This document shows, one piece after another, positions 7,409-19,001 of a DNA stretch of 41,117 bases. This DNA is from Candidatus Caldarchaeales archaeon (lineage in GTDB: Archaea > Thermoproteota > Nitrososphaeria_A > Caldarchaeales > Wolframiiraptoraceae). The notes beneath the pieces were generated by a model. The model ran no database searches. It was given only the letters and a program-made list of their open reading frames with translations, and was not told the DNA's origin. The position numbers and the translations under genes were made by a program. Positions within the stretch are counted from its first letter, which is position 1. Every line of letters begins with the position of its first letter. The stretch is from the NCBI GenBank assembly GCA_039630055.1, contig JBCNVN010000011.1, positions 1 to 41,117 of the forward strand, given 5' to 3'.

Positions 7409-9529
7409 TTATATGCTGGGGGTCCAGCGATTCAATAACATCGAGTTTAGTGTAACTGTTATAGATGAAGCGGCCATAGCTATAGCTGCGAATACTGGGT
7501 TGAGTAGTAGGCCTAGTGAAGGATAGAGGACTCCTGCAGCTATCGGGATGAGTATTACATTATATCCGAAAGCCCAGAAAAGGTTTTCTCTTATCTTCCT
7601 GAAAACCCTCCTACCCAACATCACTGCATTTACTACATCTGATAACTCATCTCTGATTAGTATGATTCCACCTGATTCTTTTGCAATATCTGTCCCGCTT
7701 CCGATGGCTATGCCTAGGTCAGCGGCCGCCAGTGCAGGAGCATCGTTAACTCCGTCTCCAACCATCGCTACAATCTTCCCTTCACGTTTAAGCTCTCTTA
7801 CAATCATAGCTTTATCTCTAGGAGATACTTCTGCAATAACCTTATCTATCTCTAATCTCCTAGCTACTGCTTGAGCGGTCCGTCTATTGTCTCCTGTAAG
7901 CATTACCACTTCCACACCTATAGACTGGAGCTTCTTGATAGCTGTTAGAGCTTCCTCCTTAATAGTATCCATTATCGCTATAACCCCTACCAATTTCTCA
8001 TCTAACGCTACTAGGACAACAGTCTTCCCATCTTCTTCAAGAATCCTTATCCTATCTTCAATATGATCGATAGATATTCCAAACAATTTCATCATTTCCC
8101 TGTTACCGACCAGAATAGTCTTACCCTTGTAAGATGCTTTTACTCCATGACCTGGAATCATCTCAAAGCCTTCAGGCTCATCCAACTCTAAATTCCTAAT
8201 CTTTGCACTCTCTACAATTGCTCCACCTATTGGATGCTCAGACCTTAATTCAGCTATAGCAGCAATTCTAAGAACCTCCGATTCACCGTCTCCGAAAGAT
8301 ATAATATCTGTTACTGAAGGCTTTCCTTTTGTAAGAGTCCCAGTTTTATCGAATACCATCAAGTTAACTTTATGAAGCTTCTCTAATGCTTCACCATTCT
8401 TTATGAGTATACCGTATCTAGCGCCTTTCGAGGCACCTATCATTATCGCGGCAGGTGTTGCTATTCCTAAAGCACATGGGCATGCTATTATGAGTACTGA
8501 GATCAAGATTGTGAATGCTGATGGGAAGGGCAGCCTCCATACAAGGTACCAGAAGAGGAATGCTCCTATACCTAAGACTATTATAGCTGGTACAAAGTAT
8601 GATGATACTTTGTCGGCTATCCTCTGTATCGGGGTCTGGGATAGTATAGATTCTTCAACCATCTTCACGATCTGAGATAGCATGGTATTAGAGCCTACTC
8701 TGGTAGCTTTAATCTTAAGGTAGCCAGACCTATTAACTGTGCCTCCTATTACTTCATCGTTGACCTTCTTCTCTACAGGCATACTCTCTCCAGTCACCAT
8801 AGATTCATCTACAGAAGAATAACCATCCAGCACGACTCCATCTACAGGTATCTTCTCGCCAGGTCTCACTATAACTACATCATCCACCTCCACCTTCTCA
8901 ATCGGCACCTCCACCTCTTCATCATTCTTAACAATCCTAGCAGATCTAGGCTGTAGATCTAGAAGCTTTATAACGGCCTCCGACGCTCTACCCTTAACCA
9001 TCTGCTCCATAGTCTTTCCAAGCATTATGAACCCTATTATCAATCCAGTCTCTGTAAAGTAGACGTTAGGCCCCTCGAAGGTGACAGTTGTAGGAAAGAT
9101 TTCTGGGAAGAAGGTGTAGAGGGTGCTATAGAGCCATGCAGCGGTGGTTCCGATAGCTATCAAGCTATCCATGTTGGCTTTTCCAGCCTTGATAGCGTCA
9201 AGGGTTCCTCTGTAAAATCTCCATCCACCGATAAACTGTATCGGGGTGGTGAATATGAAGAGCCAAATATAGTTTGGTAGTCCAAACCATGTAAAGTTAT
9301 GTTCGACTCTGAGGATATATGGGATAAGGTATTCGAAGATAGCTGTTACACTCCCTAGAACGAGGCTGAAAACCGCTAATATCTTAAACTTCTTGAACTC
9401 TCTCTCAGGTGCGAGAAACTCTTCTAGACATCCTTGACTGCAGAAGTAGTATACTGTACCTTTCCTCTCAACCTTAAAGGGTGTTCTATCCTCATCAACA
9501 TACATTCCACAGACGATATCTCTTGCCAT
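7409..9529 (-). CDS. copA: Copper-exporting P1B-type ATPase with N-terminal YHS/TRASH domain
   Basis: DIVCGM...YYFCSQGC (TRASH), [24 protein letters not shown] and MAASS motifs. Start at ATG 9529 with GGTG SD. Confidence 0.95.
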
Positions 9530-15699: not shown

Positions 15700-17193
15700 T
15701 TATGCTTGTTTTTTCCTGTAGAGTATGATTGTGACGATTAGCGCTGTGATGAAGAGGGCGATGAGGTTGAAGCCCTTGAGTGGATGGCCTGCGAACCATA
15801 GGGACCCTATGCCGTTAGGTATGCCTAGCCATGCGAGGAATCTTCCAAGCATGTTGAATGTCGGAGCCATCGGTATCGTCATAGCAAATAGGTAGAGCAG
15901 CCCAGGCCTATTCGCGCCAAACAGCGCAGCACCGAATACGGAGAGTATGAGAAGCCAGGTTACTCCTACATGATACCAGCTTGTCGGGCTTAGGTGGGCG
16001 TTCTCAAGCCCCCGCGGTGTCCCCTTCACAGACGCCGTGCCTAGGTATGTCGCTGGATACGGCCCTGGGTAAGACGCCCCTTCAGGTTGTTTGTAGGTTA
16101 CCGTGATGAAGGGGCTTGTATTCCATGTTAGTGCGATGTAGGCTCCTACCGCTATCAAGATTGCTAAGCCTGTGAAGCAGACTGTTAGGGCTATCCTATA
16201 AGCGGTTGAGTGGCCCTCTCCTGACATCCGCCCCTCTACCGAGCTGTGAGAATAGATGCCTAGGGCTGAGGGAATGGCGAGAAGTATCAGAAGATAGTAG
16301 ATTCCTGCAGGCACTACCCAGACGACGCTTGGAAGTTGGGCGAGGTTGAAGACCAGCAGGCCGACAACCGTCAGCGGAAGGCTAATCTGCATCAACCGGT
16401 ATGCGAGATTCTGAATCCTGGGTCTTACACGTAGAACACTCATCATGATGAGTATTAGCATGCTGCTCGTGGATAGGAGGGCTGCGTGGTCGTGTAGCTG
16501 GACTAATGCTGCAGGCGATATAGGTTGATGGACTAGTTTGAAGACGGCGTTAATTGCGAAGCCCACTATGACCGAAAAGGCTATGACGAGCGTCGGTATC
16601 AGGAATATTCTACGCGGTACCTCGACCTCGGAGAGAAGCTCGAGCCTCGACTTTGGCTGAGGCTCCCTAGCAGTTATCAGTGGAATGTTTATCCCCGCCG
16701 CTGAGAGGCCGACGATTCCCAGTCCAACGAAGCCGAGAAGCTCGAGCACGGCGGCTACGAGGCCGACTAGTGGTAGCTCATAGTATGTTCCCGGAGTCGT
16801 ATAGGACTCAAACCTCCAGATTGCGGGGCCTCCTATCTCGTAATACGTGGCCAGTACACCGACCCATAAAGTCGGGCCCACAAATGTGCCTGCGATGATT
16901 AACTTCTTCGCCCACGATTTGAGTTGAAGGTCTGGAAGCACCAGCGCAGCTATGAGTATGAGGACTGACCACCAAGCGGAATGGGCATGACCCAGTTTCT
17001 CCCACTCCGGCACTGGACGACCCCATGCTGCAGCCGTCCATATTCCCAGCATCCCGACAAATGTTCCAGTCGCGATGGCTATGGTGGCGGCGATAAACAT
17101 TGGGAGGTTGAGGCCAAGCCTTATCGTCTCCTTCAAGACCCTCCCCACAAAGCTACTTCTCTTTTCCACCTTATAAAAAGTTAGTATCGACAC
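15700..17193 (-). CDS. Multi-pass (~12 TM) membrane protein with three His-bearing repeats, possibly heme/metal-binding
   Basis: Long hydrophobic ORF with GHAH, LHDH and AHLS..WYH motifs. The start is uncertain; TTG 17136 after GGGGAGGG is plausible. Confidence 0.8.
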   Translation of the reverse strand: MSILTFYKVEKRSSFVGRVLKETIRLGLNLPMFIAATIAIATGTFVGMLGIWTAAAWGRPVPEWEKLGHAHSAWWSVLILIAALVLPDLQLKSWAKKLIIAGTFVGPTLWVGVLATYYEIGGPAIWRFESYTTPGTYYELPLVGLVAAVLELLGFVGLGIVGLSAAGINIPLITAREPQPKSRLELLSEVEVPRRIFLIPTLVIAFSVIVGFAINAVFKLVHQPISPAALVQLHDHAALLSTSSMLILIMMSVLRVRPRIQNLAYRLMQISLPLTVVGLLVFNLAQLPSVVWVVPAGIYYLLILLAIPSALGIYSHSSVEGRMSGEGHSTAYRIALTVCFTGLAILIAVGAYIALTWNTSPFITVTYKQPEGASYPGPYPATYLGTASVKGTPRGLENAHLSPTSWYHVGVTWLLILSVFGAALFGANRPGLLYLFAMTIPMAPTFNMLGRFLAWLGIPNGIGSLWFAGHPLKGFNLIALFITALIVTIILYRKKQA

Positions 17194-17523
17194 CTGATTG
17201 CGTATCTAAGATCTACAGAATCATGAAAACATATTATTCGTTGATCTGGTATTTCTTCTGCCTCGAGGATTTATGGCACTAATTACGAAGTTTTGGGGTT
17301 TAATAGAGTTTTATGAACTTGATGCCAAAACCCCATAGTTTTCGTCGGAGTTGGTTCTGAGCAAATATGTGAAGATCACCTCGACAAACCACTCCCTAAG
17401 ACGAGTAGGCTGGAACACGCCTGAAACGAAGAGAGAAGCTGTAGACACGGCCCCTGTATAATATAAATTAATCAAAATTATAATACTATGATCAAAATCC
17501 AGTTTCTGAAGTTTAAGTAGATG

Positions 17524-17617
17524 TGCTCCGGCCGGGATTTGAACCCGGGTCTCGGGCTCGAGAGGCCCGCATACTTGACCTGGCTATACTCGGTGCTTTT
17601 CTAAGCTCTACCGGAGC
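17524..17617 (-). tRNA. tRNA-Glu(CUC) with a 19-nt intron (17589-17607) at position 10/11; CCA not encoded
   Basis: Acceptor GCTCCGG/CCGGAGC-A, anticodon arm CGGGC-CTCTCGA-GCCCG, T arm CCGGG-TTCAAAT-CCCGG. The D stem GTAT/GTAT is restored only after removing AGCTTAGAAAAGCACCGAG. Confidence 0.95.
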
Positions 17618-17768
17618 CTCCCATCCGGAGCAATATTAAATTGTGCATGGCTCCATGAATACTCTTCGCTGGTCTAGATGAAGCCTTTGAGAAGGCATAA
17701 ATACTACCTTTACCTATTACTAGAAATTCTCTTTTTATGGATGTAATGTTATCTGGTCTGAAAGATTC

Positions 17769-19001
17769 TTAGACTGAGACTATCTTCTTAAGCTCTAGAA
17801 CTATATTTTGAAGGTCTGGCTCGGTCTCTAAGATTGTAAATGGTTTAAAAAGGTTTGGGTCAGGATCTTTGAGTAAATGTCCAGTACATATACATACAAC
17901 CTTTTCATCTTTGTCTATTGTACCATTCTCGATCAGCTTCTTTACCCCTGCTACAGATGCGGCTGATGCAGGCTCGACACCCAGACCCTCAAGCCTAGCT
18001 ATGGCCTTCTGAGCCTCTACTATCTCTCTATCAGAGACTATCTCGACGCCTCCCCCCGATTCTCTAATAGCTCTCAAAGCCTTCTTCCAGTTCACAGGTC
18101 TACCTATCCTTATAGCTGAAGCAATAGTCTTAGGATTCTCTACTGGCTCAAGCTTCTCACCATCGTCTCTGATCATCTTTGCGAATGGTGATGCACCCTC
18201 AGCTTGTACTCCGAACATTCTCGGCGACCAGTCTATCAAGCCTAGATGTTTAAGCTCGCTGAACCCTTTCCATATTGCTGCTATATTTCCACAGTTACCT
18301 ACGGGTACCGAGACAATGTATTCTCCATCCATCTCTTCAGCCAGCTCATATCCTAGAGTCTTCTGTCCTTCAAGCCTCCAAGCATTGATAGAGTTAAGAA
18401 CGTAGAAACCGAGCTCTCCCACGACCGACATAACAATCTCCAATGCTTGATCAAAACTTCCCTTGATCTTGACTAGGATAGCTCCATGGGCGATAGCTTG
18501 AAAGATCTTTCCAAGGGCGGCGCCCTCTGGCACCAATGTTATACAGGGTAGGCCTGCTCTAGCAGCATAAGCCGCTAGGGAGGCTGCGGTATTTCCAGTA
18601 GATGCACAGATAACTCCCTTCGCACCAAGTTCTACCGCTTTTGTTACCGCTACTGTCATGCCTCTATCCTTAAAGCTTCCAGTCGGATTAGCCCCCTCAA
18701 ATTTTAGGTAGATCTCTTCTACACCAGCCCACTCACTGAGACGTCTACAATCTATCAATGGCGTTCCACCTTCTCTGAGCGTTACCCTCTTAGAGAAGTC
18801 TACCGGTATCAGTTCACGATATCTCCAAACACCTTTAGATCTATCCTTGAATATGCTCCAACTCTGTACCTCTACCTTATCCAAATCTAGTACTATGTCT
18901 ATAAGATCTCCGCACTTCTCACATGTATACCCTCTATAATCAAGAGGATAAATACTACGGCAGTTAATACATTGAAGCCATGCATCTACTACCTGCTTCA
19001 A
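17769..19001 (-). CDS. thrC: Threonine synthase
   Basis: NPTGSFKDRG PLP-Lys motif, ASTGNT, PVGNCGN and EPASA; N-terminal CxxC...CxxC. Confidence 0.93.
   Translation of the reverse strand: MKQVVDAWLQCINCRSIYPLDYRGYTCEKCGDLIDIVLDLDKVEVQSWSIFKDRSKGVWRYRELIPVDFSKRVTLREGGTPLIDCRRLSEWAGVEEIYLKFEGANPTGSFKDRGMTVAVTKAVELGAKGVICASTGNTAASLAAYAARAGLPCITLVPEGAALGKIFQAIAHGAILVKIKGSFDQALEIVMSVVGELGFYVLNSINAWRLEGQKTLGYELAEEMDGEYIVSVPVGNCGNIAAIWKGFSELKHLGLIDWSPRMFGVQAEGASPFAKMIRDDGEKLEPVENPKTIASAIRIGRPVNWKKALRAIRESGGGVEIVSDREIVEAQKAIARLEGLGVEPASAASVAGVKKLIENGTIDKDEKVVCICTGHLLKDPDPNLFKPFTILETEPDLQNIVLELKKIVSV

Follow-up and report, generated by a model that had tools for sequence, protein, structure and literature searches.

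A minus-strand tRNA-Glu(CUC) gene in the stretch of DNA analysed here (41,117 nt in all; the window) raises the question of how a splice motif can form when some of its bases belong to the acceptor stem. The gene occupies positions 17524-17617 and is split by 19 nt between G10 and U11; the original prediction read this insert as an intron at a non-canonical position. It lies in a 575-nt gap between the minus-strand ORFs 15700-17193 and 17769-19001, has the CUC anticodon in a 7-nt loop and shares its body with the tRNA-Glu orthologues. Both exons are collinear within 94 nt of one strand, an arrangement distinct from that of split or permuted tRNA genes. It is the genome's sole detected tRNA-Glu(CUC) gene, in an assembly that is a MAG of 92% completeness, so that a second such gene is possible. 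Elsewhere in the window, positions 60-373 of the plus strand match the archaeal signal recognition particle RNA over its full length (Rfam RF01857, 150.8 bits). The layout of the tRNA locus, as predicted for the minus strand and given in the order of transcription, is as follows.

17654..17661, minus strand: TATA-like box TATTCATG, -30..-23 when counted from the copy's first G
17625..17631, minus strand: leader copy GCUCCGG, identical to acceptor positions 1-7
17618..17624, minus strand: spacer AUGGGAG, separating the copy from the true 5' end
17608..17617, minus strand: 5' exon GCUCCGGUAG, positions 1-10
17617-17611, minus strand: G1-G7, the true 5' acceptor strand GCUCCGG
17613-17610, minus strand: C5-U8, 5' strand of the central helix H
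17610-17608, minus strand: U8 A9 G10; the 5' bulge begins with A9 and G10
17589..17607, minus strand: predicted intron, 19 nt, A-GCUU-AGAA-AAGC-ACCG-AG
17607, minus strand: intron A, third base of the 5' bulge
17606-17603 / 17598-17595, minus strand: intron helix h' GCUU / AAGC, with the loop AGAA between
17594-17591, minus strand: intron ACCG, 3' strand of H, followed by AG, the first two bases of the 3' bulge
17524..17588, minus strand: 3' exon, positions 11-73, with U11 at 17588; CCA is not encoded
17562-17560, minus strand: anticodon CUC
17531-17525, minus strand: 3' acceptor strand CCGGAGC, perfect complement of GCUCCGG at 17617-17611
17524, minus strand: discriminator A73

The insert as an intron and the site of cutting

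The proposed motif is found on the minus strand at 17618-17582, with the 19-nt insert running exactly from A17607 to G17589, and both the layout and the relatives agree that the gene is a tRNA-Glu with the insert between G10 and U11. Folding of the local 40 nt (RNAfold) returned the helix CGGU/ACCG, a 3-nt AGA bulge, the hairpin GCUU/AAGC and the helix GGCU/AGCC, a structure weakly better than chance (z = -2.18; 7 of 200 shuffled sequences folded as well). The 4-bp central helix pairs C5 G6 G7 U8 with ACCG and thus borrows acceptor bases C5-G7 plus U8, as had been predicted, and the 3-nt 5' bulge A9 G10 A is closed by h' GCUU/AAGC, for which at least 2 bp were required. The outer helix GGCU/AGCC of the original prediction fared less well, as it does not directly close the 3' bulge: an exon-side helix h of at least 2 bp was looked for at this place and is lacking, since A12 and U13 face C4 and U3 and cannot pair. 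Pairing of G1-C2-U3 with A14-G15-C16, all of them invariant bases, is possible solely across an internal loop. Because its 3' bulge has no adjoining exon helix, the motif belongs to the relaxed HBh' class and is not a full hBHBh', a class still counted as BHB by the definition in the Methods of bioRxiv 10.64898/2026.10.13.758758. Removal of the 19 nt in silico restores the D stem, as had been claimed, and yields 75 nt that fold into a perfect cloverleaf (acceptor stem 7 bp, D stem 4 bp), a canonical tRNA equal to those encoded by the intron-less orthologues.

Among 41 genomes, namely that of the window and those of 40 relatives, 30 orthologous loci were recovered, 25 of which are devoid of the insert and read GCYCCGGUAG joined directly to UAUAGYC, identical to the predicted spliced product apart from D-loop variants, while the other five carry an insert at the same place. 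A larger set pooled from all scans (L033-L194) held 121 matches, 97 distinct sequences and 87 distinct introns of 16 to 38 nt. The partner strand of C5-U8 was GCCG in 58 and ACCG in 29 of these 87 introns, and the base after G10, the third base of the 5' bulge, was A in all but two (85/87). An intron helix of at least three contiguous pairs abutting H was present in 77 of the 87, in the form of 45 distinct stems, compared with 3.8% of shuffled interiors. The RNAalifold consensus of 34 diverse precursors also contained the central helix, and each of its four h' pairs was backed by 11 to 16 double compensatory changes; these were 34 of 42 picked precursors, the others (L081, L106, L122, L125, L130, L146, L158 and L184) having been omitted as odd, near-duplicate or near contig ends.

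It is this comparison, and not the local fold, that lifts the structure above chance, and conservation of the helices is strong evidence for a conserved RNA structure of BHB type. The insert is almost certainly a real protein-spliced intron of the archaeal BHB kind, of the relaxed HBh' class. That the gene might instead be a pseudogene, or that the insert might stay in the RNA, is extremely improbable: the modest score of the local fold by itself would be compatible with either, but no other tRNA-Glu(CUC) gene was detected in the assembly, the tRNA body is fully conserved, a retained insert would destroy the D stem and the helices are kept with compensatory changes across two classes.

The window sequence by itself allows three registers of cutting, because the insert follows UAG and itself ends in AG; cuts at 8/9, 9/10 or 10/11 would all give an identical product. 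Archaeal splicing endonucleases cut a motif with a 4-bp central helix and 3-nt bulges at a fixed place, which falls here between G10 and U11. Among the 87 introns the last two bases were AA in 47, AG in 26, AC in 10 and AT in 4, that is, other than AG in 61. All 55 intron-less genes have G10, which pairs with U25. In the 47 introns ending in AA a shifted cut would leave A10, still able to pair with U25, and to that extent 8/9 or 9/10 would be tolerable; in the 14 introns ending in AC or AT, however, it would turn position 10 into C or U, with loss of the 10-25 pair, so that 10/11 alone keeps both G10 and the pair. We therefore regard a cut at 8/9 or 9/10 as very unlikely and place the intron, with high confidence on these sequence grounds, at 10/11.

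The host encodes the enzymes that such a motif would call for. EndA alpha (184 aa, PF01974 plus the N domain PF02778) and EndA beta (139 aa, PF01974) are encoded by separate genes, located on contigs C21 and C5, a pair from which we infer a heterotetrameric (alpha-beta)2 endonuclease, predicted to cut relaxed motifs. It matches the broad-specificity type described for TACK archaea in passages of PMC7714728 and PMC4033280, and PMC3082918 reports a heterotetrameric EndA in Caldiarchaeum subterraneum. A full-length archaeal RNase P RNA is present (174 bits), and the window DNA occurs in hot-spring metagenomes (three DNA runs from one hot-spring study).

The genome is rich in tRNA introns, ARAGORN reporting one in most of its 43 tRNA calls. 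Its tRNA-Glu(UUC), on the minus strand of contig C9 near 9176-9270, lacks both the 10/11 intron and the leader copy; compared with intron-less orthologues it is longer by about 20 nt, located at about 27/28 in the 5' strand of its anticodon stem, and it is called tRNA-Phe(AAA) by ARAGORN. On contig C31 (763-850) the same program calls a tRNA-Ile with anticodon UAU, a tRNA that the tRNAscan-SE 2.0 paper (PMC8450103) notes as unusual for Nanoarchaeum and Korarchaeum. A tRNA gene on C16 looks multiply interrupted, and more introns, non-canonical or several to a gene, are probably concealed in a number of ARAGORN calls with an improbable intron or anticodon, for example Asn(ATT) i(30,37), Met i(30,74), Val(CAC) i(32,84) and His i(29,26).

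The gene under study is itself miscalled, as had been anticipated for standard scanners. ARAGORN placed tRNA-Glu(CUC) at 17523-17596, and the Rfam tRNA model matched 17524-17596 with 39.4 bits, the lowest of the genome's 37 tRNA matches, compared with 60.4 and 62.7 bits for two intron-less orthologues. Both calls have a wrong 5' end, for which the intron's GCACCG, mismatched, was taken as the 5' acceptor strand.

Distribution of the intron and of a leader copy of the acceptor strand

The non-canonical 10/11 site is no rarity, as it recurs in tRNA-Glu of both Aigarchaeota and Bathyarchaeia. A pattern scan of the window's class found the 10/11 intron in 9 of 76 genomes, a tenth match being an intron-less gene with a partial upstream repeat. 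The scan of named MAGs returned 72 loci, roughly half of them true cases, from Aigarchaeota/Caldarchaeales and many Bathyarchaeia, the remainder being genes devoid of an intron in which GGUAG occurs upstream by chance, together with three bacterial matches likewise due to chance. In the metagenome scan 102 stretches matched, with 80 loci among the matches listed. Since the same gene structure recurs there, the tRNA sets of many Bathyarchaeia and Aigarchaeota MAGs are probably misannotated in the way described above.

In L036 / L061 (G063), an intron-less tRNA-Glu, GCCGGUAG stands 12 nt upstream as a partial copy of positions 3-10, which could be due to chance or be another relic. A group of intron-less tRNA-Glu loci of Bathyarchaeia, among them L045, L063, L075, L080 and L082, have a common leader with CUUACGGUAG about 18 nt before the gene; as the scan pattern required an upstream GGUAG, this is probably a selection effect within one clade. 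The tRNA-Glu(CUC) gene L037 (G002, same genus as the window) has, besides the 10/11 intron and the leader copy, a second insert, 23 nt long, within the anticodon (between C34 and U35). This insert is a clean insertion by comparison with orthologues, and inspection by eye suggests a central helix of 4 bp (GGCC/GGUC) and an intron helix of 5 bp.

The original prediction pointed out that the intron forces acceptor bases out of the cloverleaf but overlooked a second GCUCCGG at 17625-17631, upstream of the gene, which bears on precisely this point. All five intron-bearing orthologous loci have an exact second GCUCCGG a few bases upstream, and the intron-less ones have none. The census was extended to the distinct intron-bearing genes whose upstream sequence ran to 35 nt or more, 87 in number after 10 with shorter sequence had been set aside, and the copy was present in all 87, 0 to 18 nt upstream. 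It was an exact GCUCCGG in 67 genes, GCUCCGA in 13 and GCUUCGG in two, the last a C-to-U variant in which G-U pairing with the 3' strand would remain; the other five genes had six-nt, adjacent or extended copies (GCUCCG without a spacer in three, GCUCUG in one and GCUCCGGUAG plus 3 nt in one). The scan patterns started at CCGGUAG or GGUAG, so that the copy was not selected for; the intron-bearing sequences are related, and 87/87 does not stand for 87 independent events. None of 55 distinct intron-less genes for tRNA-Glu, drawn from the class and from the wider phylum, had a copy within 40 nt, a copy being defined as a 7-mer with at most one mismatch or an exact 6-mer. Within the window's genome one of 40 T-arm/acceptor candidates had a copy, namely tRNA-Glu(CUC).

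Positions 1-3 and 6 of the copy are invariant and variation is confined to positions 4, 5 and 7. In the 83 sequences with a spacer of 2 to 20 nt, as required for this comparison, the flanks had an entropy of 1.4 to 1.8 bits per position except at -1, and the spacers were purine-rich and of 61 distinct kinds. We consider the leader copy a new and strongly supported observation at the level of sequence. The possibility that the copy is the true 5' exon was rejected because the spacers do not supply U8 A9 G10.

Two named MAG records (L044 and L049) hold a tRNA with acceptor GCCCCGG and a 19-nt insert a few bases further into the D loop, with UAUAG repeated on either side. The central helix of that insert would mimic the D stem and leave acceptor bases unused, and there is no leader copy. 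These records, in effect one sequence, fit the copy being needed solely when acceptor bases are borrowed.

The position of the copy relative to promoter signals suggests that it is transcribed. When 81 distinct upstream regions were aligned on the copy, A+T content reached 0.96-0.99 at -30..-27 within a TATA-like peak at -31..-26, and position -1 was T in 66 and a pyrimidine in 77; the TATA-like TATTCATG of the window (17661-17654) lies at -30..-23. The archaeal TATA box is centred about 26-27 nt upstream of the start, which is a purine after a pyrimidine. From this spacing, the pyrimidine at -1 and these promoter rules the primary transcript is predicted to begin at the first G of the copy, which should then form its first 7 nt. 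An eighth pair between T at -1 and A73 was considered and dropped, as the promoter spacing favours an untranscribed initiator base.

A possible surrogate for the 5' acceptor strand

The effect of the leader on folding was modelled by nearest-neighbour calculations for 80 distinct full precursors at 37 C and 70 C. For precursors starting at G1, without a leader, the median probability of the central helix was 0.00 (37 C) and 0.03 (70 C), with the true acceptor stem at a median of 0.99 (37 C). With the natural leader and its copy it was 0.95 and 0.91, respectively, and pairing between the copy and the 3' strand reached a median of 1.00 at 37 C. Shuffling of the copy gave 0.54 and 0.55, an intermediate value (0.54) that is explained in part by the self-complementarity of CCGG. 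Compared precursor by precursor, the probability of the central helix with the copy exceeded the leaderless value in 79 of 80 cases and the shuffled-copy value in 76 of 80. The copy lay on the 3' strand in the minimum-energy folds of all nine precursors of the class, and in the RNAalifold consensus of the 34 precursors as well. The helix between copy and 3' strand showed no covariation, both sides being invariant in all sequences; likewise, the acceptor stems of all intron-bearing genes found are GCUCCGG, with no variant that could show the copy tracking the acceptor.

These models suggest a sequence of events in which the copy would stand in for the true strand. The central helix (C5-G7) would compete with a 7-bp, G+C-rich acceptor stem; pairing of the leader GCUCCGG with CCGGAGC would free the true 5' strand for the splice motif, and the copy would keep the 5' exon of 10 nt tethered to the tRNA body while the RNA is cut and ligated. 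The two-subunit EndA would cut and an RNA ligase would join the exons, after which the true strand would take over and RNase P would remove copy and spacer. When the precursors were spliced in silico with the leader kept, the copy remained on the 3' strand (median 1.00) and the true acceptor stem did not form (0.00), so that a strand swap before RNase P is left without support from secondary-structure energy and would then depend on tertiary structure, on modification or on kinetic capture by RNase P. On balance we favour the reading, suggested by the folding models, that the copy acts as a surrogate acceptor strand and exon tether. The wider generalization is one on which we are evenly divided: that acceptor-borrowing introns need a cis-acting surrogate strand, providing a fold switch, a tether for the 10-nt exon and splicing before RNase P, and that this arrangement is conserved in Bathyarchaeia and Aigarchaeota, perhaps predating their split.

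The copy might also be functional in some other way, as a promoter-proximal or initially transcribed DNA element, by delaying RNase P or by pairing with the CCGG of the true strand, which we consider unlikely. Its place exactly at the predicted transcription start, with T at -1, would suit a promoter element, but a general promoter role is hard to reconcile with its absence from the intron-less tRNA-Glu genes of these lineages, some of which share the upstream promoter motif. The palindromic CCGG does allow alternative pairings; positions 1-3 (GCU), however, lie outside the palindrome, are invariant and match only the AGC of the 3' strand or of the D loop. Persistence of the copy on the 3' strand in the post-splicing model would fit a block on timing, although such a block would use the same pairing as the surrogate strand.

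The other explanation accepts the intron as real and takes the copy for a functionless relic of the tandem duplication or recombination that created it. Traces of duplication are indeed present. The intron 3' end GCACCGAG (GCGCCGAC in relatives) resembles the 5' exon GCUCCGGUAG, a likeness that is due in part to the self-complementarity of CCGG, giving three tandem exon-like units in all; L081 repeats all 10 nt of GCUCCGGUAG with a 3-nt spacer; and a duplicated 5' tRNA fragment upstream of the tRNA-Thr of Caldiarchaeum subterraneum is described in PMC3293823. A neutral 7-mer, on the other hand, would not be expected to persist in 87 of 87 genes while the spacer and the upstream flank vary freely, and the copy decays where the intron is gone and is absent from all 55 intron-less genes. 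A duplication origin is, moreover, compatible with a present function, and we judge it improbable that the copy is a relic and nothing else.

The decay can be followed in one lineage. The intron-bearing metagenome gene L120 has clear upstream homology to the intron-less L008 and L009 of two same-genus genomes (G007 and G006). At the homologous places L008 and L009 have the degraded copies GCCCCAG and GACCATG, followed by the former 5' exon in degraded form (GCCUCAAAAG), the beginning of the intron and an intact GCUCCGGUAG joined directly to UAUAG. This arrangement suggests a recent loss of the intron by replacement near its 3' end, followed by decay of the copy, and fits selection on the copy solely while the intron is present, in one lineage and one alignment. 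Together, the three tandem exon-like units and the decaying trace suggest concretely how an intron of this type may come into being and disappear. For splice motifs that overlap essential tRNA helices, the duplicated leader strand is a candidate answer to the question of how they form.

Comparison with known introns and rearranged tRNA genes

Non-canonical BHB introns, relaxed motifs and their link to the two-subunit EndA are already well known. The window intron resembles the non-canonical introns of Crenarchaeota/Thermoproteales, as described in passages of PMC4090602 and of Fujishima and Kanai 2014 (PMC4033280), in being short, protein-spliced and outside 37/38, with a relaxed BHB, and in having a TACK host with a two-subunit EndA and a motif formed at the expense of the cloverleaf. 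It differs from them in that its central helix is made of acceptor-stem bases, and in its position: the examples given by Yoshihisa 2014 (PMC4090602) are 20/21, 22/23, 25/26, 29/30, 30/31, 45/46, 53/54, 56/57, 59/60, 'etc.', an open list in which 10/11 is not named, and a 3/4 intron is cited there as an 'extreme' position.

Literature searches retrieved no description of a leader copy of the acceptor strand, and none appears in the passages available of PMC4090602, PMC4033280, PMC8450103, PMC3218864, PMC3293823, PMC7714728 and the bioRxiv preprint. The D-arm intervening sequences of Asgard archaea, which that preprint (10.64898/2026.10.13.758758) reports as systematically missed by tRNAscan-SE, are similar in their length of about 20 nt and in being overlooked or miscalled by annotation; they were found by way of compact relatives, and relaxed motifs are common among them. 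The type seen in the window, by contrast, occurs in Aigarchaeota and Bathyarchaeia, and the passages of the preprint at hand mention no leader element.

Split and permuted tRNA genes (PMC4090602 and PMC3218864, in the sections consulted) offer a parallel in which sequence outside the mature tRNA helps to form the endonuclease substrate and holds the exons. Here, however, the exons are in order on one transcript, and the extra sequence is not part of the BHB itself; it resembles an exon strand and would pair with the partner of that strand. A precedent in the same archaeal group is tRNA-Thr(GGU) of Caldiarchaeum subterraneum (Sugahara et al. 2012, PMC3293823), which likewise has a duplicated 5' piece upstream of an intron-bearing copy. 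According to that paper, its duplication spans positions 1-27, is separated from the gene by a 1.9-kb mobile insertion and varies among strains, whereas the copy described here is 7 nt long, lies 0-18 nt upstream and is fixed across two classes.
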